A stretch of DNA of 38,486 bases from an uncultured Methanosarcinales archaeon (GCA_964645415.1 CAZXZL010000003.1:4124-42609), one strand, 5' to 3'; positions 4,979 to 21,227 are shown, counted from the stretch's first letter. Numbers and translations are program-made. The notes: generated by a model not told the origin, from the letters alone.

Positions 4979-7177
4979 ATGAATTTTAACGAAAAACAAG
5001 TTAAGGAATTAGCAAACAAATATCAATCACGTTTAAGTAATTTAGAGACAAATAAGAATAATAAAAATAATAACAATAAAAAACCAAAAAAAAATAACTT
5101 ACAAACTAATGATTTTGTTAATTCAAAAGATTATTTGGAATTTAAAAAACAATTTTTACCTCCTGAATTATCTAGATATGAACAGTTATGTAAAAAATTT
5201 GGAGGTTTGTTTGAAGTTAATCCTCCTCATGATGAGAAAATAAAACTAGAAGAATCTATCTCTTATGCTCATCTAAATATTACTCCTCAAGAAGCTCTTA
5301 GTTTTTCTTATATTTTTCCTATTGTTTTTATGATTGTAAGTTCAATTTCATCTTTTTTTATTTTTTTTATTTTAACAGGTGGTGAAACATCTCTTTTTTT
5401 CCCATTAGTTTCTGTTTTAATTGGTCTATTTTTAATGAATGTTTTAAGTGATTTACCTCATTTACTTTCTGAACAAATGATTATGAAGGCAGGAAGTTCT
5501 ATGATTCAAGCAGTTTTCTATGTTGTTACTTTTATGAGAAGCTCTTCTAATTTAGAATTAGCAATTAATTTTGCTGCAGACCATCTTCCTTCTCCACTAT
5601 CATTAGATTTTAAAAAAGTATTGTGGGATGTTGAAAATGGAAAATTTAGTACTGTAAAAGAATCTTTAGATGATTATCTTGTTAAGTGGAGAGGAAAATC
5701 TGATGATTTTATTGAAGCGATGCATATGATAGAATCTTCTCTTTATGAAGGTACTGAAGAAAGAAGACTTGAAATATTAGATAAATCTTTACAGTTAATT
5801 TTAGATGGAAACTATAATCAGATGCTTCGTTTTGCTAGAGAATTAAAAGGTCCAGTTGCAATGCTTAATATGATGGGTGTTGTACTTCCTGTTTTAGGAT
5901 TAGTCATTTTACCAATGGTTGTTAGTTTCATGGATGCAGTTAGATGGTTTCATATATCTACTCTTTATAATTTATTACTTCCTGCTGGAATTGCTTATTA
6001 TTCAAGAAAGATTCTTTTGAAAAGACCTGCTGCTTCAACTGGAAATTCTGACATTAATGTTCCTGTAAATGCCGAAAGTAACTTTTCTTTTGCGGGGATG
6101 AGTTTTACTTTAACTCCGATTGTTATTGCTTTAATAATAGGAAGTATTTTTATTTTGATTGGTTTTTCTCCTCTTTTTATGAATGCTGTTGGTATGCCTG
6201 ATATTACTTTTTCTGCAGAGTATAATATTCAATTTTTAGATTTTCAAATAGATGAAAGTGGTGAAGAAGTTGGACCTTATGGTCTTGGAGCAACTTTAAT
6301 TAGTTTATCTGCTGTAATTGGTGTTGGAATAATAGTTGGTTTAAGTAAAAAATTAAAGTCTGAAAAGCCCTATAATATGGTCCAAAAAGTTAAAAAACTG
6401 GAAGATGAGTTTTCCTCTTCAATTTATCAGCTTGCAAATAGACTTGGCGAAGGAATGCCACTTGAAAAGGCTTTTCAATCAGTTATTTCTTCTTCAAAAG
6501 GCTCTGCTACAGAGGAGTTTTATTCTAAAATAAATGATAACATTCGAAGACTTGGTATGAGTGTTGATCAAGCACTTTATGATCCTGAAAATGGTGCATT
6601 AAAAGATTATCCTTCTCCTTTAATGCATTCTACTATGAAAATATTAATTGAAAGTATAAAAAAAGGTCCAAGAATTGCTTCTAAATCTCTAATTCACATT
6701 TCTGAATATTCAGAGAGTATAAAAAGAGTTAATGAAAGATTGAAAGATTTAATGGCAGAAGTAATCTCTTCAATTAGGTCTCAAATGTCTATGATGGCTC
6801 CAGTAATTTCAGGTATTGTTGTAGGTATTACTTCTATGATTATATCTATTATTGGAAGGATTCAAGATGAAGTTGGAGAGATTGCTACTGAATCTGGTGG
6901 AGGCGCTGCTGGAGGAGCAGGAATGGGTCTCATGGATGCATTTCAACGAGGTGTTCCAGCATATTATTTTCAAATAGTAATTGGAATATACGTTATTACA
7001 TTAATTGCTATTCTTTCTAAACTAGTTGTTGAGTTAGAGAATGGTCCAGATGATGTTTTAGAAAATTTTGAACAGGCAAAAAATGTTATTAGAGGTACTA
7101 TGATTTATTCAGTTGTTTCTTTCTTTACAACACTTGGATTTAATATTATGGCGGCAATTATAATTACAACAATCTAA
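4979..7177 (+). CDS. FlaJ(ArlJ)/TadC-like type IV pilus platform membrane protein (T2SS-F-like, two cytoplasmic domains)
   Basis: 732 aa and polytopic. Two soluble helical segments lie between TM blocks (..ELAINFAADHLPSPLSLDFKKVLWDVENGKF.. and ..SSSIYQLANRLGEGMPLEKAFQSVI..), resembling the duplicated T2SS-F domain. The position directly after the ATPase supports the call. Confidence 0.65.
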   Translation: MNFNEKQVKELANKYQSRLSNLETNKNNKNNNNKKPKKNNLQTNDFVNSKDYLEFKKQFLPPELSRYEQLCKKFGGLFEVNPPHDEKIKLEESISYAHLNITPQEALSFSYIFPIVFMIVSSISSFFIFFILTGGETSLFFPLVSVLIGLFLMNVLSDLPHLLSEQMIMKAGSSMIQAVFYVVTFMRSSSNLELAINFAADHLPSPLSLDFKKVLWDVENGKFSTVKESLDDYLVKWRGKSDDFIEAMHMIESSLYEGTEERRLEILDKSLQLILDGNYNQMLRFARELKGPVAMLNMMGVVLPVLGLVILPMVVSFMDAVRWFHISTLYNLLLPAGIAYYSRKILLKRPAASTGNSDINVPVNAESNFSFAGMSFTLTPIVIALIIGSIFILIGFSPLFMNAVGMPDITFSAEYNIQFLDFQIDESGEEVGPYGLGATLISLSAVIGVGIIVGLSKKLKSEKPYNMVQKVKKLEDEFSSSIYQLANRLGEGMPLEKAFQSVISSSKGSATEEFYSKINDNIRRLGMSVDQALYDPENGALKDYPSPLMHSTMKILIESIKKGPRIASKSLIHISEYSESIKRVNERLKDLMAEVISSIRSQMSMMAPVISGIVVGITSMIISIIGRIQDEVGEIATESGGGAAGGAGMGLMDAFQRGVPAYYFQIVIGIYVITLIAILSKLVVELENGPDDVLENFEQAKNVIRGTMIYSVVSFFTTLGFNIMAAIIITTI

Positions 7178-12795: not shown

Positions 12796-13018
12796 CTTAG
12801 ATGATTTGTTCTCAAATTTTATCGAATTTGATAAGGATGGTACTATACTACCTGTAGCACTGTAGTTTCTATTAAATTCTATTTGTTTTTATCTTATTCA
12901 TATAATTACTTTTTTTTAGATGATTTTGATTTCTACTTTCTTTAGCTAAAGAAGAATACATACTGCACACTTAAACGAATAAATACACTTTAGCTAAAAC
13001 GAATACAGACTCTTTAGC
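12796..13018 (+). repeat. Intergenic repeat family, copy A (includes a 12-bp palindrome and ~24-nt tandem units)
   Basis: It shares cttagatgattt, aaggatggtac...gcac..tagtt..ttctattt, ttagatgattttgat and ctttagctaaag with copy B. A 26-nt core (12835-12860) is identical to the reverse complement of 38281-38306. Confidence 0.8.
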
Positions 13019-13113
13019 ATAATCTTTTTATTATTAATATAAATATATTTTAGTATACAAAATAATATAATAGATTAGAAAAATATATAAATTAACAAAA
13101 AGGATATTTGATA

Positions 13114-16100
13114 ATGGTAGAGTATACTATAGCGCATGCTACAATAGCCCTGTTAATAATCGCAGTTGTAGGAGGAGTAGGATCCACAGTAATAACTGAT
13201 GCAGAAAGTGATATTCTTGGAATTTGGGGTGAAGATCAAGAAGAGGATGTAGGATTTGAGCCGTATGAACCTGAATTAACTCAAAGTGAAAATGTTGTAG
13301 TCGATAATGTAATGTATTTTAAAGAAGGTGTTGAAATTTTTGAAAGGATTTCTTCTGACATTGTAAGTAATGAAAATCAAGTTGATTCAATCACTGGTGC
13401 TGGTTTTAGTTCACCTGTTTCAACCCAAGATTTACCAAGTGATATAAATGGTTATACTATTTATGATTTAATTTCTGAAACCAAAAATTATTATTCTGAT
13501 ATTGAAGACCCTAATTATAAAGATATAAATAACCCTTGTACAGATTATCTTGACTCAGGAAATCCTTCTTTTAAATTATCTATAGATAATAGTGATGAAG
13601 AAAATAGTAATCAAGATACTTTGAATACATATTTTTGTGGTGCTTTTGAGTTAGATAATAAAGATGATTTTCCGGATTATATTAAATATGAAAAAGATGA
13701 TAATAAGTTAACAATCCCAGTTAGCCATAGTCCATTTTCAGAACTTTTCTTAAACTATCAAAATATATTACCTAATGAAGGGCCAAGAACAGATGCTGGT
13801 CAATGGAGTACTGGTGATATGAGTCATTTGTTTAGTGAATCTCCTTTAAATGAAATAAACTTAGTTTTTCAAGTAGAGGATTATAGTGGGGATATGACTC
13901 ATATTATTGTACCTTTTGATACTGACCCTGAAGACTTTGAATTTTTTTACTTTGAAGATACTGAGTTAGAGTATAGTATTGCCCCACTTGTATTTAATGG
14001 AGGTTTTACAATACCATACTTTTACTTACCTGAACCTTGTTATGATGGAGATGGTGAGTTTGAAGATGAATGTCTTGGACAATCAAGTGGTTTTTTGGGA
14101 AGTTTTAGAGATTATTTAAATCAAAATTATAACTATCCTTCTTATCTTTTTTATTATGATTCTTTTCCTGAATCTGAAGAAGCTCATTGGGATTTTGATG
14201 AAGGAACATCTTTTTTCTGGGATATTATGTTCTCAGATTTATCTTATATTTATGATTCTATTTCTTCTCTTTTTTTAACAGAGGATGATGAAAATTTTGA
14301 AACGGATGGTGATATTTTTAATCATTTAGATGAGTCATATCGTGAGGGTGGAATTTTATACATGATGGGTTACCATGGTAATACTTCTAGAATCGTTCTT
14401 AATTATATTTTAGAAATTACAAAAGATAATAAAAAAGACATGATGGAAGATTTTTTGAGAGGTGATATACACAATGCTTGGAATAATGCTCCAGATAGAA
14501 TCATGAAAAATTTATTTTTAGATTTCTTTACAATTGAAGAAGAAAATGAACTTAGAGATAATACAATTAGTATTATTGAACGTTCAGTTTATAGTGATTA
14601 CGTAGATAATGTTTTAATGTTGCTTGATATAGAACCAAAAGTTACAGGATTTAATAATCAAGTTTCTGATTTTTTAGACCAATCTGATTCAAAATATATT
14701 TTAGAAGATAAATTAATGGAAGAGTATAGCGAGTCAAAATCAAATTTTTATTTATCTACATTAGAACAAATGGGTTCTTCTAATTTCTTTGATGCTTTTT
14801 CATCAATTGATCATAAAATATTACTTTTAAAAAATTATGAAAATAAAAACTATAATAAAAAAGACTTTAATCTTAATAGTTATCTTAATGATTTATCAAG
14901 GACTAAATCTGATGATGTCATTGAAAGTACTTTAAAGTTTAGTAGTATTCCTATTAATGAAGATTTAGAAAATTTCATTAAAGAAGTCGGATTAGAACGG
15001 TTTCATTCTTCACTAGAAAATTATTTTTCTTCTGGAAATAACTGGGATGATTTTTTTAAATCTTTTACTGGAAAAAACTTTAACTCTTTTGATAATTTCA
15101 TATATCAATATCCTTATTCAGAGATTAGTAGTTTTTCCGAATCTGAATTAGCTAGTTTAGGAATTTTTTTCATTATTGGAACTGAAAAATATCAATATAA
15201 ATATTTTAGGGATTTCTTATATAACAATCAACTTGAAGAGGATTTATACCTTGCTTCTGCTCAAAGTGGAAACAATTATGCTTCTTTTGAGATTGATAGT
15301 CCTCTATTTATAGATAAAGGAGGTGAAAATGTACCACAAAATTTTCATCTTATTTCACCTTGTCTTACTAACATCGATTTAACTTATGATAAAACATATT
15401 ATGAAATTGGGTCAAATGTTATCTACTTTCATGATGGTGTTTTACGGTTAAGTGATTCTTTAGAATCTGAGATAAAAGAAGATCTTTTATGTGAAAAAGA
15501 ATTTATTTTTGACCCTTATTTTGATTTAGAAAAAGATGATAGAGATGATTTGAATAATTACTTATTTGATCAATACTTTAATGATGATAAAAATCTGTTT
15601 TTTGAAATGATCTTTGAGAGTGATTTCTTTGATAAAAATTCTATTTTTGAATTCTATGATAATTTATATGAAGAATGTTTAAATGATTTATATTGCCATT
15701 TCTTTTTAGATGCATATCATTTAGATGAGGTTGCTGGAGAGATTTTATTTCAATTTTTTTCAGGCTTCCATAATTTTGGTGACTCCTTTCAATTTTATCC
15801 TATTTTTGGAAATAAAACTGATGGTGTTTGGAACTTTAATTTTGAATCGACTTTTGATGAGGGGCATCATAGTTATAGTTCTGCTAAGGGGGACTTTTTT
15901 ATAACTTCTGATAATATTCCAGCTTTTTTATTTCCTATTGCTTTAAGACATCGTTACCCACAATCTGATAATTTAAATGATGCAATTGACTCTGCATTTA
16001 ATGAATTTAATAAACTAAAACAGATTGAGGGAGAATGTAGTGAAATTATTTCATTAGTTGATGAGTATTTTTATTATGATTTTTATACAAAAATTAGAGG

Positions 16101-19100
16101 AAAAACTAGCGTATATGATTACTATTATTCTTCGGGTTCTCATAATTTTATAGATTCAGAATATCCTGAAAATTCTTTTTATGATTATTTTTATGTTAAT
16201 GAGTATACCTCTTCTGAAATTAATGACTTTAATGAGATTCTTTCTGAAGACCATATTCAAAAGTGGTTAAATGATAGAATTGGAAAGTTTAAATATGATT
16301 CTACTAAAGAAAATTTTATGTGTATTGAATATGTTGAAGAGTATATTTCAAATAAAGTAGATAACATTTTAGAATTAAAAGAGAGTTCTTCTTGTAATGA
16401 AGAGGTTAATTTAAATACTGGAGAAAGTATATCCTCGAGAATATCTACTAGTGAACGTAATAATATTATTATGCCAAATGAACCTTGTTTTAATGATCTC
16501 TTTCATCTTGAAAATATATTAAGTACCTCTTATTTACCTTTTGTTATAGATTCTTTATACTACGGAAAATCAAATATTGATAAAAATAATAGATACAATG
16601 AATTTATTGAAGAATTAATTTTACCTACTGTTTATATTGATGAAATAAGAAGAAATCATCAATCGATTTCAACATCAGATGAGAATTACAAAGAAAAGAA
16701 TCCTGAACTTAATACATACTTAAAACCATTTTCCTTTTTCTTTCAATTTTTATATCAAGATGTTGATGATAATTTAATTGTTTCTGATTTAGATGATAAA
16801 ATAAATAATTTATGTTCTGTTCCAGGGAGTTGTAATTATGAAGAATTAGATTATTTGAATTTTTCTGAATTAATTCATGAAAATAGTGATAATTTTAATA
16901 CTTTTTATTCTCCTTTTAGAGATTTTTTATTAATCCCAGATGATTTTGAGAGATTTAATTTAGACTTTAGTGAATCTGATAGTTCTGATGAAATCTATTC
17001 TAACCTTGAAAATATGTTTTCTTCAAAAGGTACCATGTGGAAAGATGATTATTTTGATATGATTTCTTTTATTAATCAAAATACTGATGGTGATTCTAAT
17101 AATTTACTTTTTGATTTTTATGAACAATTATATTCTGATTGTCTTTCTAATTTAGAATGTTCAATGTTTTTAGAATATTATAATCTTGATGAAGTCGTTG
17201 GAGAAATTCTTTTTAGATATTTTTCTGATTATTATCGATTAAATGAGATGTTTATAAGCATTGGTAGTAGTAGTTATTGGGATAATAAAAAACTATTTGT
17301 TACAGAAAGGAACATACCTTCTTTTTTATTTCCTATTGGATTAATGTATCGTTATAATACTAAATCTCTTGATGATGCATTAGATTTAGCAATCAATGAA
17401 TTTGATAATGAGATAAGTTCTGATTTAAGTTGTAATCAAATTATAAATATGGTTGATGAATATCTTTATGTTGATTATTTTAATAACAGACATTCTAGTG
17501 AATCATATTATGATGTATTTACAAGGGAAGGGGCAGGAATCGGTGCAACTGGCGATACACTCCCTATTCATTTTTATCAATCATACTCTGAAAATGAACT
17601 ATTTGAAGATTTAGAGACTGTAGATGATTGGTTTGATTTATTAATTGATGATTTATTTAATGAGTCAAGACCTTTAATGTTTGATGACTTTTCTTGTCTT
17701 AAAGAAGTTGAATCTTATGTAAATGACACATTAAACAAAATTAATGATAAATTTGAATCGAGTTCATGTAATAGTGATTTATTGTTAAGCCATTATGAAA
17801 GTGAAAAAATTGATTCAGATAGTGAAAATTTACCTAATAATTATTGTTTAAAAGAAATTCATAAATTAGACAATTTTTTATCTTCTAAAGGTTTACCTGA
17901 AATGATTGATAAATTACATAAGGGTGAAACATTAACATTTAATCTTGGACAAAGAAAATCTGACTTGAAAGATATAATGGAGACTTCACTTTATGAAAGT
18001 ATGTCTGATAATTTAAAAGGAAACTTTTTAGTCCCTTTTAATATGTTTTTTAACTTTTTAGATAATAATCAAGATAAAAACTCTTTTATAGATAATTCTT
18101 GTTACTATCCTTCATCTGATAATCATAATGATTTATTCATTTCAATAATTAGTGAACATATTGAAAAAGAATGTGAAAATAATTTTAAACCAGAAAGTTT
18201 ATTTGATAGGATATACAGTCTTAATATTATAAATGAGAATCACTTTGATAAATCTTATTTATATGATTTATTTAGTGATTTTGATGGTGAGATATGTGAT
18301 ATTCCTAGTACTGGAGAGGATTTCTTAAAAGAGATACATCAAAAAATAAGTGATGATTATAATAGTTTACATACTGATTTTATAATTTGTGACTTTGACT
18401 ATTATAATTTTAATCATGATTTATCAAAACATTTTCAAAACTCATTTAATGATTACGAATCAAATTTTTATCTTGATATCCCTTATCTTTTCTTTTCATT
18501 TTTATATGATGAAGATGTTTTAGATATTGATGGTTTAAAAACTCATGATAAAATTCTTAGTAGGCTTTTTAATTATGACTCAAAATCAAATATTCGTGGA
18601 AGTGATTTATGTGAAGAGAATTTCTTGTATTGTTTTTTTAATGAAGAGTTATTTGGTTATTATTATAATTGTTCTGATTATTCTGTTTCAGATGTTTCTC
18701 AAGATAGATCGGACTTTGTTTCACCAAGTTATATTTTAAGTGAACAATTATTTGATCCCATATCTTATGATATTCCTCTTCAAAATGTAATAGGAAGATT
18801 ATCATCTTATGTTGATAGTGATGATGATTTAGATTTTGATCAAAATGAATTCTATGATATTTTTTACAAAGAAGAACAATTTTCAACGAAAAATAATATT
18901 TTAGCTGAATCTGACCATATGAATGGTTTTTGTTATGGTAATTCATTTGAATTAAGAAAATCAAATGTTATTTTAACACAACTTAGATCTCAACAAATTG
19001 CTTTAAACGTTATAAGTGGTGCAGTTGGTTTTAAAGTAGGTTATAAATTTGGAGGTTTTATTGGTGGAAAAGCTGGTGCTGTTGCAGGAACTGGTGTTTT

Positions 19101-19275
19101 ACCGGGTATTGGTACTGGTGTTGGAGGTGCTGCAGGAACAGGATTAGGTGGTGGTTTAGGTGGGGGTATAGGATCTTTTCTTTTTTCAAGATCAACAAAT
19201 TTAGTTTATGATTTTATTATTTATCATCATGAAAGAGATCGTCTATATTGGCCAGAATCAGGGGTGGCATCATAA
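13114..19275 (+). CDS. Giant (2,053 aa) highly acidic, D/N/F/Y/S-rich surface protein with an N-terminal hydrophobic anchor, an internal ~330-380-aa duplication and a C-terminal glycine-zipper segment
   Basis: Uninterrupted ORF. The track start 13108 is TTG and the first ATG is 13114. The N-terminus is MVEYTIAHATIALLIIAVVGGVG. Duplicated blocks are visible directly (see findings). The C-terminus is GGFIGGKAGAVAGTGVLPGIGTGVGGAAGTGLGGGLGGGIG. I recognise no catalytic motif. Confidence 0.85.
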   Translation: MVEYTIAHATIALLIIAVVGGVGSTVITDAESDILGIWGEDQEEDVGFEPYEPELTQSENVVVDNVMYFKEGVEIFERISSDIVSNENQVDSITGAGFSSPVSTQDLPSDINGYTIYDLISETKNYYSDIEDPNYKDINNPCTDYLDSGNPSFKLSIDNSDEENSNQDTLNTYFCGAFELDNKDDFPDYIKYEKDDNKLTIPVSHSPFSELFLNYQNILPNEGPRTDAGQWSTGDMSHLFSESPLNEINLVFQVEDYSGDMTHIIVPFDTDPEDFEFFYFEDTELEYSIAPLVFNGGFTIPYFYLPEPCYDGDGEFEDECLGQSSGFLGSFRDYLNQNYNYPSYLFYYDSFPESEEAHWDFDEGTSFFWDIMFSDLSYIYDSISSLFLTEDDENFETDGDIFNHLDESYREGGILYMMGYHGNTSRIVLNYILEITKDNKKDMMEDFLRGDIHNAWNNAPDRIMKNLFLDFFTIEEENELRDNTISIIERSVYSDYVDNVLMLLDIEPKVTGFNNQVSDFLDQSDSKYILEDKLMEEYSESKSNFYLSTLEQMGSSNFFDAFSSIDHKILLLKNYENKNYNKKDFNLNSYLNDLSRTKSDDVIESTLKFSSIPINEDLENFIKEVGLERFHSSLENYFSSGNNWDDFFKSFTGKNFNSFDNFIYQYPYSEISSFSESELASLGIFFIIGTEKYQYKYFRDFLYNNQLEEDLYLASAQSGNNYASFEIDSPLFIDKGGENVPQNFHLISPCLTNIDLTYDKTYYEIGSNVIYFHDGVLRLSDSLESEIKEDLLCEKEFIFDPYFDLEKDDRDDLNNYLFDQYFNDDKNLFFEMIFESDFFDKNSIFEFYDNLYEECLNDLYCHFFLDAYHLDEVAGEILFQFFSGFHNFGDSFQFYPIFGNKTDGVWNFNFESTFDEGHHSYSSAKGDFFITSDNIPAFLFPIALRHRYPQSDNLNDAIDSAFNEFNKLKQIEGECSEIISLVDEYFYYDFYTKIRGKTSVYDYYYSSGSHNFIDSEYPENSFYDYFYVNEYTSSEINDFNEILSEDHIQKWLNDRIGKFKYDSTKENFMCIEYVEEYISNKVDNILELKESSSCNEEVNLNTGESISSRISTSERNNIIMPNEPCFNDLFHLENILSTSYLPFVIDSLYYGKSNIDKNNRYNEFIEELILPTVYIDEIRRNHQSISTSDENYKEKNPELNTYLKPFSFFFQFLYQDVDDNLIVSDLDDKINNLCSVPGSCNYEELDYLNFSELIHENSDNFNTFYSPFRDFLLIPDDFERFNLDFSESDSSDEIYSNLENMFSSKGTMWKDDYFDMISFINQNTDGDSNNLLFDFYEQLYSDCLSNLECSMFLEYYNLDEVVGEILFRYFSDYYRLNEMFISIGSSSYWDNKKLFVTERNIPSFLFPIGLMYRYNTKSLDDALDLAINEFDNEISSDLSCNQIINMVDEYLYVDYFNNRHSSESYYDVFTREGAGIGATGDTLPIHFYQSYSENELFEDLETVDDWFDLLIDDLFNESRPLMFDDFSCLKEVESYVNDTLNKINDKFESSSCNSDLLLSHYESEKIDSDSENLPNNYCLKEIHKLDNFLSSKGLPEMIDKLHKGETLTFNLGQRKSDLKDIMETSLYESMSDNLKGNFLVPFNMFFNFLDNNQDKNSFIDNSCYYPSSDNHNDLFISIISEHIEKECENNFKPESLFDRIYSLNIINENHFDKSYLYDLFSDFDGEICDIPSTGEDFLKEIHQKISDDYNSLHTDFIICDFDYYNFNHDLSKHFQNSFNDYESNFYLDIPYLFFSFLYDEDVLDIDGLKTHDKILSRLFNYDSKSNIRGSDLCEENFLYCFFNEELFGYYYNCSDYSVSDVSQDRSDFVSPSYILSEQLFDPISYDIPLQNVIGRLSSYVDSDDDLDFDQNEFYDIFYKEEQFSTKNNILAESDHMNGFCYGNSFELRKSNVILTQLRSQQIALNVISGAVGFKVGYKFGGFIGGKAGAVAGTGVLPGIGTGVGGAAGTGLGGGLGGGIGSFLFSRSTNLVYDFIIYHHERDRLYWPESGVAS

Positions 19276-19388
19276 TGGATGAAGATACAACAAAAATACC
19301 TTTTGTATTAATAATAGTAATAACTTTAATGCTACTAGGATTTATTTTAATGTCAGTTATAATCACAAATATTTTAACTGCTAACTAA
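19275..19388 (+). CDS. 37-aa single-TM micro-protein (below the ORF-track cutoff)
   Basis: I translated this myself: MDEDTTKIPFVLIIVITLMLLGFILMSVIITNILTAN. Its ATG overlaps the giant gene stop (TAATG at 19273-19277), which suggests translational coupling. Confidence 0.5.
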   Translation: MDEDTTKIPFVLIIVITLMLLGFILMSVIITNILTAN

Positions 19389-19413
19389 GTTTTAAAATAA
19401 AAAGATAAATAAA

Positions 19414-20274
19414 ATGGTTTATGATAATAAAAAGGGAATGCCTGCAGTTTTAGTTTCAATTATTCTAATGACTATTGTTTTTTTAATTTTATTATCTCTT
19501 GCAGGAGAGATTATGACTTTAGTTGTATCTGGAACTGATGATTTACGTTGTACTTGGAGTGCTGTTTTACATTCACATACATCAACTTTTTTTATGGGTG
19601 ATGGATTTGAACTAGATTGTAAAATAGATACTATTTTTATTAGTCTACAAAGAGACAATGATGAAAACCCTACAGATATTACTTTTCGTCAGGATGGTAA
19701 TGACCAGAGTATAGGTGTTCCTCAAAGATATCTCAATGCTGTTGAATCATGGAATCAAAACTCTTATGGAGAAGGTTTTTCATTTAATAATCCAAGCCAT
19801 AGGATTAGATATTTTTATGATACAAAAATTTCTCGTGAAATGATTGATTGTAAACAAAAGTTAGGAGATGGAAATATTGAACTTTTTGGTAATGATCCTA
19901 GTGGAAATACTTGTGTTATTTGTACTCGTTTTGTAATCCCAAATGAAAATGATTTAAATTATTTAAAACATATAACTCAAGGTGAATTAGTGGGTGAATT
20001 TTTAAGATCAAATCCTTATTCTTTTACTGATATTGACCATCAAAAATCATTGTGGGAAAAAATTAGATTTGAAGGACAAAGTGACCTTTTTGATACTATT
20101 GGTTATGATATGGATGAAAATCTTCTTATTGTTTATTCTGTATCAAGTGGTGGCCCTCTTGAGAGTATTCCTGTTATTGGACATTTATTTAGTGAAGATG
20201 ATAATGTAGGTCATAATATTTTTTTAACAACACCTGATGATTTAAGTAATTATTGTGATACTGTTGCAAACTGA
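19414..20274 (+). CDS. Pilin-like N-terminus protein (class III signal peptide-like), orphan globular domain
   Basis: 286 aa. The N-terminus MVYDNKKG-MPAVLVSIILMTIVFLILL has a basic patch, a small residue and about 20 hydrophobic residues. Six Cys are present. Confidence 0.6.
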   Translation: MVYDNKKGMPAVLVSIILMTIVFLILLSLAGEIMTLVVSGTDDLRCTWSAVLHSHTSTFFMGDGFELDCKIDTIFISLQRDNDENPTDITFRQDGNDQSIGVPQRYLNAVESWNQNSYGEGFSFNNPSHRIRYFYDTKISREMIDCKQKLGDGNIELFGNDPSGNTCVICTRFVIPNENDLNYLKHITQGELVGEFLRSNPYSFTDIDHQKSLWEKIRFEGQSDLFDTIGYDMDENLLIVYSVSSGGPLESIPVIGHLFSEDDNVGHNIFLTTPDDLSNYCDTVAN

Positions 20275-20281
20275 GGTTAAA

Positions 20282-20425
20282 ATGTTAAATAAAAAATCAA
20301 TGGAATTTTCGTATCTTGCTGGATTTTTACTAGCATTACTTTTTTTATTTTTATTAATACTTTTTATTGGAAATATGGCTTCTGAAAGTTTTGGAGTTAT
20401 TTCCTTTCTTGAAAGTGTTTTTTAA
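20282..20425 (+). CDS. 47-aa micro-protein with a pilin-like N-terminus (below the ORF-track cutoff)
   Basis: I translated this myself: MLNKKSMEFSYLAGFLLALLFLFLLILFIGNMASESFGVISFLESVF. A GAGG site lies 5 nt upstream of the ATG, and the gene fills the gap between two operon genes. Confidence 0.45.
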   Translation: MLNKKSMEFSYLAGFLLALLFLFLLILFIGNMASESFGVISFLESVF

Positions 20426-20723: not shown

Positions 20724-21227
20724 ATGAAAAAAGCAGAAATGACTATGAGGGAATTAGTAGAGTTGATTATTGTAGCGATGGCTATTTTATTTGTATTTTT
20801 ACCAATTACTATGAGTATTTATCAATCTTTTTTTGTATCAGAATATCCTCTTTTAAATAATAGAATTGAAGATTTAAAATATACTCTTGAATCAACTCAC
20901 TCTTTTGATGATGATTTTAATATTAAATTTAGTTTTCCTTCTTATGATGAACTTGAAGGAGCTTTTGATGGTTTATTGAATTTTTTTGAGAATGATAATT
21001 ATTATAATATTTATTTTAAAAGTGATTCTCGTTTGAGTGAAATTTGTTATTCTGTTGATAATAATAGATACTGTAAAGATGTTAATTCTGATATACAATT
21101 TTATAAAAACGGAGAGAGATGTGAAGATTACTGTGTTGAAAATATTTATCGAGATAGTGAGGGAATAAGAAATTTAGAAATTTCATTTAATAGAGACTAT
21201 TTTGAAATTGAAGGGGTGGTATATTGA
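20724..21227 (+). CDS. Pilin-like N-terminus protein
   Basis: 167 aa. The N-terminus is MKKAEMTMRELVELIIVAMAILFVFL. The start lies 3 nt after the upstream stop. Confidence 0.6.
   Translation: MKKAEMTMRELVELIIVAMAILFVFLPITMSIYQSFFVSEYPLLNNRIEDLKYTLESTHSFDDDFNIKFSFPSYDELEGAFDGLLNFFENDNYYNIYFKSDSRLSEICYSVDNNRYCKDVNSDIQFYKNGERCEDYCVENIYRDSEGIRNLEISFNRDYFEIEGVVY

Follow-up and report, generated by a model that had tools for sequence, protein, structure and literature searches.

The giant gene and the small gene at its end

The window, the stretch of 38,486 nucleotides (nt) analysed here (contig C3:4124-42609 of a 0.96-Mb genome in 79 contigs, with a completeness estimate of 100%), carries a giant gene whose 3' end encodes a glycine-rich module and whose stop codon overlaps the start of an open reading frame (ORF) of 37 codons. 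The window genes given here with coordinates lie on the plus strand. The giant gene (13114..19275) encodes a protein of 2053 amino acids (aa) from an ATG start, as seen in its ORF and translation. This start is fixed by the N-termini of the relatives described below, and a TTG start at 13108 was rejected on the same ground. Residues 4-28 of the giant (13123..13197) form a genuine, conserved transmembrane (TM) helix, a signal anchor, recognized by its hydrophobicity and kept in the relative P0008. The Kyte-Doolittle mean of this helix over 19 residues is 1.6-2.3, and its Hessa-type score is -0.3; the latter is a simple sum over the best stretch of 19 residues, with scale values after Hessa et al. 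2005. The protein as a whole contains 18.9% aspartate and glutamate (D/E) and has a net charge of -258; about 1,900 very acidic, cysteine-bearing residues, presumably extracellular, separate the N-terminal helix from the C-terminal module. No K/R-G cleavage motif is present at the N-terminus.

At the C-terminus this composition changes. In bins of 100 residues, D/E makes up 16-25% along the giant and drops to 13% and then 8% over the final two, where glycine, at 1-9% along the protein, rises to 14% and 25%. The longest D/E-free run, 86 residues (1947-2032; 18952..19209), delimits a net-basic module and was equalled in none of 5000 shuffles; the second-longest such run is the N-terminal TM helix. 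Within the module, the segment ISGAVGFKVGYKFGGFIGGKAGAVAGTGVLPGIGTGVGGAAGTGLGGGLGGGIGSFLF (residues 1967-2024, encoded by 19012-19185) has 24 glycines among its 58 residues. Sixteen Gly-Gly pairs are spaced at i+4 (P=0.00025, segment shuffling), and two runs of six glycines at this spacing, i.e., two (GxxxG)5 stretches, lie on either side of the sequence VLPGIGT (P=0.0008). That is, the segment has the pattern by which a glycine zipper is recognized, repeated (G,A,S)xxxGxxxG or GxxxGxxx(G,S,T) on one helix face. Arm 1 (19027..19089; Gly 1972, 1976, 1980, 1984, 1988 and 1992) includes three lysines and is amphipathic, with a hydrophobic moment of 0.68. The putative turn VLPGIGT (19096..19116) joins it to arm 2 (19111..19173; Gly 2000, 2004, 2008, 2012, 2016 and 2020), in which the i+4 periodicity continues, and a polar, aromatic tail of 29 residues (19186..19272), ending in YWPESGVAS, completes the protein. 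Because two 12-nt tandem repeats fall inside the segment, at 19023-19047 in arm 1 and at 19144-19172 in arm 2, the glycine periodicity arose in part by slippage in four-codon units. No other ORF of the genome was found to encode a comparable glycine-rich, uncharged segment.

The micro-ORF (19275..19388) encodes MDEDTTKIPFVLIIVITLMLLGFILMSVIITNILTAN, a single-pass membrane protein of 37 aa whose one helix is very hydrophobic (Hessa-type sum -5.4). Its ATG (19275-19277) overlaps the TAA of the giant (19273-19275) in the sequence TAATG (19273..19277). A Shine-Dalgarno (SD)-like GGGGTGG lies within the last codons of the giant (19261..19267) and places a GGTG at -12. Genome-wide, GGTG precedes 162 of 754 long ORFs at -12 to -9, with a peak at -10, over a background of 1.7 per kb. 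The codon usage of the micro-ORF fits real hydrophobic coding, and only 1.4% of spurious open 37-codon runs match it on both measures. Gene callers predicted it in the ENA and Logan copies of the organism.

Conservation of the pair

Relatives of the giant are few. A HMMER scan of 1.84 billion representatives with its last 1200 residues returned one true relative, P0008 (1195 aa, E=3e-31), which has its N-terminal helix and C-terminal landmarks in common with the giant and lies on contig L022 in the same operon, with products of 37, 283, 51, 94, 170, 296, 160 and 189 aa after the giant. A third lineage, reached through a profile of the 286-aa protein encoded next to the micro-ORF, is represented by contigs L028 (Logan) and L029 (NCBI), which agree across the 421 bases read at the junction. 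Our comparisons therefore cover three diverged lineages: the window, L022/P0008 and L028/L029. In word-indexed searches among 5.8 billion proteins, neither the full-length giant nor its C-terminal region retrieved anything besides the giant itself; no match to the giant was found in 40 genomes of the same order, no Pfam domain was found in it, and its C-terminus gave only chance-level matches to PDB sequences. An alignment of the 286-aa protein likewise revealed no related loci in JGI metagenomes and GTDB genomes. Near-identical assemblies of the organism (L003-L005) differ by 1-7 nt over 9-12 kb, with no difference in 18900-19500, and are uninformative on conservation. Across four near-identical assemblies, substitutions in the giant occur at 16244, 16823, 16859 and 17549, all of them non-synonymous (S1044F, P1237L, N1249I and T1479I), and a small cluster of assembly differences is found in the intergenic region upstream of the giant (12850-12861 and 12993).

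Both relatives encode an ortholog of the micro-protein directly after the giant, in 37 codons: MDENSTKIPMVVLILVTLMLIGFVAMSIIISNILTLG at L022:6338-6451 and MDENSSKIPMIILILVTLMLIGFIAMSVIISNILTLG at L028:7015-7128. These are 62% identical to the micro-protein of the window and 86% identical to one another; G22, S27 and N32 are invariant. The micro-protein is thereby the best-conserved product of the operon, the others having 38-60% identity against the window and the giant 37%. Each of the three pairs gives a Nei-Gojobori ratio of non-synonymous to synonymous substitution (dN/dS) of 0.10-0.12, and the synonymous differences that separate the window from the relatives are close to saturated. In the relatives, GGTG lies at -9 and -10 from the start. 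Comparison with the relatives fixes the ATG at 19275, and a TTG start at 19248 was rejected on this ground. By these comparative measures, the micro-ORF is a real gene under strong purifying selection. It was called on L022; gene callers left it uncalled on L028 (7015-7128) and L029 (7038-7151, NCBI record). In the genome we found no paralogs, no orphan copies and no second C-terminal module. A degenerate DNA pattern for the micro-ORF had no match in JGI metagenomes and GTDB genomes, and in 400 genomes of the order a profile of the micro-protein matched only in part, at TM-like stretches inside larger ORFs.

The junction itself varies. It is TAATG in the window, TAAgATG, with a 1-nt spacer, in L028, and a spacer of 22 nt in L022. 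Because the junction and the relative frame differ among the lineages, we regard the micro-ORF as a separate cistron that is closely linked to the giant gene and does not always overlap it; a frameshift extension of the giant is excluded, since the frame relative to the giant is not the same in each lineage. An earlier note on this DNA had described an abrupt change in composition at the end of the giant, repeated GxxxG motifs followed by a polar tail, and a TAATG overlap with a 37-aa ORF encoding one TM helix, and all of this is borne out by the values given above. The note had also proposed that the two genes are translationally coupled; tight linkage is seen throughout and overlap in the window, and the spacers in the relatives show that overlap is not a general property of the pair. 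A lack of conservation of the micro-ORF, which the note had named as evidence against its proposal, is not what we find, given orthologs of full length in two further lineages.

The giant and its module have diverged much further. The relatives' giants have 1195-1205 aa (L022:2728-6315 and L028:3396-7013), compared with 2053 in the window, and whole-protein identity is 37% between the window and the relatives and 59% between the relatives. The central region of P0008 aligns to two regions of the giant (residues 683-1221 and 1332-1661), which fits a lineage-specific internal duplication. In the alignment of the tails, FGYYYNCSD, FxTKNNxL and GFCYGN are kept upstream, as are scattered positions in the tail and the WPxxG at the C-terminal end; in the relatives, the tail sequence is ...RRNNLIALAVLQYPLRWGIVGGLTKTGIGAPLGRLADAGMSAGLSAFTTYGAYRTMNHNRWPQGPHD. 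After NGFCYGN there are 74 residues in the relatives and 110 in the window, i.e., 36 more. Over this stretch the relatives have 7-10 glycines, 2 acidic residues (D/E) and 10-11 basic ones (K/R/H), and the window has 25, 5 and 11, respectively. Where the putative turn of the window would have PGxGT, the relatives have TG[IA]GAP. The relatives' tails are 68% identical to one another, compared with 59% for their whole giants. What the lineages have in common in this alignment is a basic module at the C-terminus with many small and almost no acidic residues, and the full glycine zipper is an expansion specific to the lineage of the window. The flanks, NGFCYGN and WPxxG, are conserved on either side of the 36-residue expansion; the earlier note had asked whether orthologs show the C-terminus and the micro-ORF co-varying or exchanged as a cassette, and this pattern speaks against an exchange.

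The pilin-like operon and a recurrent predicted hairpin

The source genome, with 26% GC (range 24-29%), is that of a DPANN archaeon of the Woesearchaeota type; an archaeal RNase P RNA lies within the window, and NCBI labels a close relative of one operon protein as 'Candidatus Woesearchaeota archaeon'. Upstream of the giant gene are genes for a T2SSE-type (type IV filament) ATPase of 776 aa and a polytopic, platform-like partner of 732 aa, as well as for a SpoIIM-like protein, a rhomboid protease and Hjc; an A24 prepilin peptidase gene is found elsewhere in the genome. The giant is the first of a co-oriented row in which the 37-codon gene is followed by genes for 286, 47, 94, 167, 296, 158, 185 and 817 aa. 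Most products downstream of the giant have a class-III-signal or KKG type of N-terminus, in which a basic patch is joined to a hydrophobic helix. Neither the giant, scanned whole and by its C-terminus, nor the neighbouring products had a meaningful Pfam match, and no operon product was assigned to any pilin family. The operon encodes a giant surface protein together with a row of pilin-like proteins.

The gene next to the micro-ORF (19414..20274) encodes the 286-aa protein, with a class-III-signal-like N-terminus (NKKG followed by MPAV). It starts 25 nt past the stop of the micro-ORF in the window and 6 nt past it in the relatives, and this gene, of 283-286 aa, has no SD motif in any of the three lineages. 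The lack of an SD motif and the start at 6-25 nt imply that it may depend on re-initiation. More generally, no SD-like motif was found for the operon genes of 286, 167, 185 and 817 aa. The 296-aa gene at 21224 has a TTG start and, like the 37-codon micro-ORF, a GGGGTGG motif upstream. A second conserved micro-ORF (20282-20425), with a class-III-signal-like start and a GAGGT SD motif, encodes the 47-aa protein MLNKKSMEFSYLAGFLLALLFLFLLILFIGNMASESFGVISFLESVF; it has 72% identity to the ORF of 47-51 aa at the same position in L022 (7336-7491) and L028 (7998-8141).

A hairpin of the same layout recurs in other operons of this kind. Against the 400 genomes of the order, the last 111 residues of the giant matched proteins of 278-320 aa in four genera, with per-genome E-values of 1e-5 to 1e-4. 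Each of these ~300-aa proteins has a KKG-type N-terminus, conserved cysteines, the arrangement (GxxxG)n - hhPGxGT - (GxxxG)n, and then a tail of 28-50 residues. The loci of this Woesearchaeales family are L008/L023, L010/L024, L011/L025 and L013/L026, with genes at L023:1061-1984, at L024:5997-6959 and 5128-5997 (minus strand), at L025:9369-10235 (minus strand) and at L026:9258-10094 (minus strand). In an alignment of four sequences, the glycine zippers and the PGxGT turn are among 26 invariant columns, and VLPGIGT in the window matches this invariant hhPGxGT turn. The window's segment aligns to one of the pilin-like proteins without gaps over 54 residues, at 37% identity. A profile-profile comparison of the giant's C-terminus with the family aligned the hairpin alone (40 columns, probability 57%), and we dropped homology between the C-terminal domain of the giant and the head of the family for this reason. 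Pfam models gave no match to the family.

The genes of this family sit in long pilin-like operons of other genera in the order, two of which adjoin the same RPA-like neighbour as the operon of the window. At two of the four loci (L023 and L025), the space behind the hairpin gene is taken up by a single-TM micro-ORF of ~50 aa; these ORFs resemble the 47-aa micro-ORF more than the 37-aa one. The window's own 286-aa protein gives a weak match to the core of the family (hhalign E=8e-4, probability 25%, 38 columns) with a shared cysteine pattern, and has SIPVIGH in place of the hairpin; it may be a hairpin-less member. A hairpin of this type was also seen at L007 (G347:C22:32801-32941), at the C-terminus of a 282-aa, glutamine-rich, coiled-coil-like protein with an IAPGVGT turn, no tail and a weak DUF6861 match (E=0.003), in a setting unlike the pilin operons. 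Taken together, the alignments are evidence that the predicted glycine-zipper hairpin is a recurrent module carried by different proteins in different lineages of such operons.

Predicted membrane behaviour and proposed role of the module

By the Hessa-type score, the two glycine arms sum to +5.4 and +8.4 and the relatives' tails to +6.0 and +7.7, compared with the negative sums of the clear TM helices, that of the giant's N-terminus (-0.3) and that of the micro-protein (-5.4). The Kyte-Doolittle means of the arms are 1.0-1.2. Judged by these scales, the glycine segment is too weakly hydrophobic for a classical, translocon-inserted anchor. Its profile fits a hairpin that is bound at the interface or packed on a partner, or else a peptide whose insertion follows folding or oligomerisation, the route described for glycine-zipper toxins (PMC10240207). 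The Pfam glycine-zipper models PF13488, PF13436, PF13441 and PF05433 gave no match up to E=10, the best matches being irrelevant (MccV, E=9.2). An archaeosortase-type sorting signal (PGF-CTERM-like) was rejected, since the segment is unique in the genome and is followed by the 29-residue polar tail; the exosortase-family model PF09721 had no match in the genome, which is weak evidence of absence given that it was found in only 1 of 14 control genomes.

The explanation we favour, with a probability of about 0.5, is that the module is a membrane-associated helical hairpin which, together with a small membrane partner, the micro-protein, forms part of a pilus-like surface apparatus. The giant would be anchored by its N-terminal signal-anchor helix, with its acidic bulk outside the cell. 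The C-terminal module, expanded partly through the 12-nt repeats, would most likely fold as a tightly packed helical hairpin. Because its hydrophobicity is too low for insertion as an ordinary anchor, this hairpin would lie at or in the membrane interface, or pack on a membrane partner. The micro-ORF has its own GGTG site and starts at the giant's stop codon or shortly behind it, so that both products would be made together. The micro-protein would most likely help to assemble the apparatus or be one of its small membrane subunits, not an immunity protein, and might be the membrane docking partner of the hairpin. We infer the fold of the hairpin, its association with the membrane and, from gene adjacency, its partnership with the micro-protein.

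A number of points weigh against this explanation. The sums of the glycine arms, and of the relatives' tails, are positive. The glycine zipper is not conserved: the relatives have 7-10 glycines in 74 residues, and arginine, lysine and aspartate inside the equivalent stretch. Three lineages are a small number on which to judge conservation. The physical link between hairpin and micro-protein rests on gene adjacency, which is weak evidence given that nearly every product in such operons has a TM helix. An AlphaFold2 model of the last 300 residues, from the three-sequence alignment, had a mean predicted local distance difference test score (pLDDT) of 32 and was given no weight.

A plainer arrangement, in which an integral two-helix TM hairpin tethers the giant at both ends and the micro-protein is an unrelated member of the operon, we consider unlikely. 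Membrane domains built from two glycine-zipper helices are known (Pfam PF05433 and PF13488), and the window offers the matching geometry of two ~21-residue arms around a Pro-Gly turn, inside an 86-residue acid-free module that is the only such stretch besides the N-terminal TM helix. The hydrophobicity speaks against this: the sums are +5.4 to +8.4, compared with -0.3 and -5.4 for the clear TM helices, and the Kyte-Doolittle means are only 1.0-1.2. Moreover, arm 1 contains three lysines, the equivalent segment of the relatives contains R, K and D, and the Pfam glycine-zipper models, as noted, do not match. Of the earlier suggestion that the giant is held in the membrane at both ends, the N-terminal half stands, because that helix is real, and the plain C-terminal anchor has become doubtful.

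Slightly less probable still, in our estimation, is a tip directed at a host. In this version, the giant is anchored at its N-terminus, its distal hairpin inserts into the membrane of a host and so tethers or breaches it, and in the producing cell the hairpin is held, or shielded, by the micro-protein. The combination of weak hydrophobicity, GxxxG repeats and a cationic, amphipathic arm is that of glycine-zipper peptides which insert post-translationally, such as VacA, CdzC/D, Tse4 and EsxX (PMC10240207, PMC5380434, PMC12744356). The same hairpin is also found on pilin-like proteins that bear class III signal peptides and can be expected to leave the membrane. The genome, at 0.96 Mb, is that of a DPANN archaeon, and DPANN archaea are known for episymbiosis. 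Against such a tip, the zipper is absent from the giants of both relatives, which would make the function lineage-specific or place it on a less glycine-rich tail, and the micro-protein does not co-vary with the tip. A wider form of the same idea is in our view just as doubtful: together with the micro-protein and the pilin-like genes, the giant would make up a host-contact organelle of a Woesearchaeota clade. It would extend outwards from its N-terminal anchor, and its hairpin, a module found on pilin-like subunits of other genera too, would insert into the membrane of another cell, after being held or guarded by the micro-protein in that of the producer.

Quite improbable is a neutral origin, in which the segment is a flexible tail grown by slippage, with no role at the membrane, and the micro-ORF serves mainly as a translational relay to the 286-aa gene. 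It would account for the two 12-nt tandem repeats, for a glycine richness confined to one lineage, and for an SD-less gene that starts 6-25 nt past the micro-ORF stop in all lineages. It accounts poorly for a periodicity that spans all 58 residues, beyond the repeats, for the complete exclusion of acidic residues over 86 residues, which points to constraint, and for the resemblance of the segment to a hairpin with invariant glycine positions and an invariant turn in another family. A dN/dS of ~0.1 and a fixed length show that selection acts on the micro-peptide itself.

The earlier note had raised, as an alternative, a membrane-active effector tip with the micro-protein as partner or protective factor, as in polymorphic toxin loci. 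A toxin pair of this kind, with a pore-forming domain in the C-terminal ~90 residues and a cognate immunity protein of 37 aa, has the gene adjacency and the stop/start overlap of the window in its favour, along with precedents for large delivered proteins that carry glycine-zipper C-termini beside genes for membrane-protein immunity factors (EsxX with ExiCD, PMC12744356; CdzC/D with the small TM protein CdzI, PMC5380434), and is nevertheless very improbable, because such a layout predicts a swapped cassette and a co-varying, poorly conserved partner, and neither is seen: the flanks of the module and the extreme C-terminus are conserved, and what lies between has been expanded rather than replaced; no operon product is better conserved than the micro-protein, whose dN/dS is ~0.1; orphan modules and paralogs were not found in the genome; the genes around the pair are pilin-like and unlike a known toxin-delivery system; and hairpins like this one are found again on pilin-like proteins encoded by such operons of other genera. 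It is because these predictions fail, and because the surrounding genes are pilin-like, that we favour a structural role for the hairpin and the micro-protein.

Relation to known systems

The surface machinery of contact-dependent DPANN archaea is almost wholly unannotated. To this machinery the present analysis adds a 37-aa membrane protein that is conserved and yet was missed by gene calling on two contigs of relatives, the interpretation of an orphan giant of the cell surface as one product of a pilin-like operon, and a candidate pair, the hairpin and the micro-protein, for how these cells anchor or deploy surface proteins. The finding alone does not reveal a new kind of mechanism.

Transmembrane glycine zippers, in the account of Kim et al. 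(2005, PNAS 102:14278, cited in PMC10240207), and domains of this type with two helices (Pfam PF05433, PF13488) share with the window segment the GxxxG repeats on one face, the two arms with a short turn, and a packing surface of small residues. The window segment differs from them in matching no Pfam glycine-zipper model, in being far less hydrophobic than the clear TM helices of its own operon, and in that its glycine positions are not kept in orthologs. The systems of CdzC/CdzD with CdzI, EsxX with ExiCD, Tse4 and VacA are similar in having a terminal glycine zipper on a surface or secreted protein, with a small membrane protein encoded beside it, and the resemblance ends there. The window holds an archaeal pilin-like operon, not a locus of a type I, type VI or type VII secretion system (T1SS, T6SS or T7SS). 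It also lacks cassette polymorphism, and its small protein is the most conserved product and does not co-vary. We found no sequence similarity to the CdzC/D, EsxX, Tse4 or VacA toxins.

The archaeal type IV pilus loci with minor pilins, such as those for the Epd pili of Methanococcus maripaludis (PMC3875500), and modular pilins (PMC8179133) differ from the window in that the products described here match no pilin family and the N-terminus of the giant has no K/R-G. They resemble it in their row of class-III-signal-like genes, with ATPase and platform genes nearby in the window and an A24 peptidase in the genome. The ~300-aa Woesearchaeales family, finally, has a class III signal peptide and a cysteine-bearing head that the giant lacks, and has in common with it the hairpin layout followed by a tail, 37% identity over the 54 aligned residues, and the same kind of operon.

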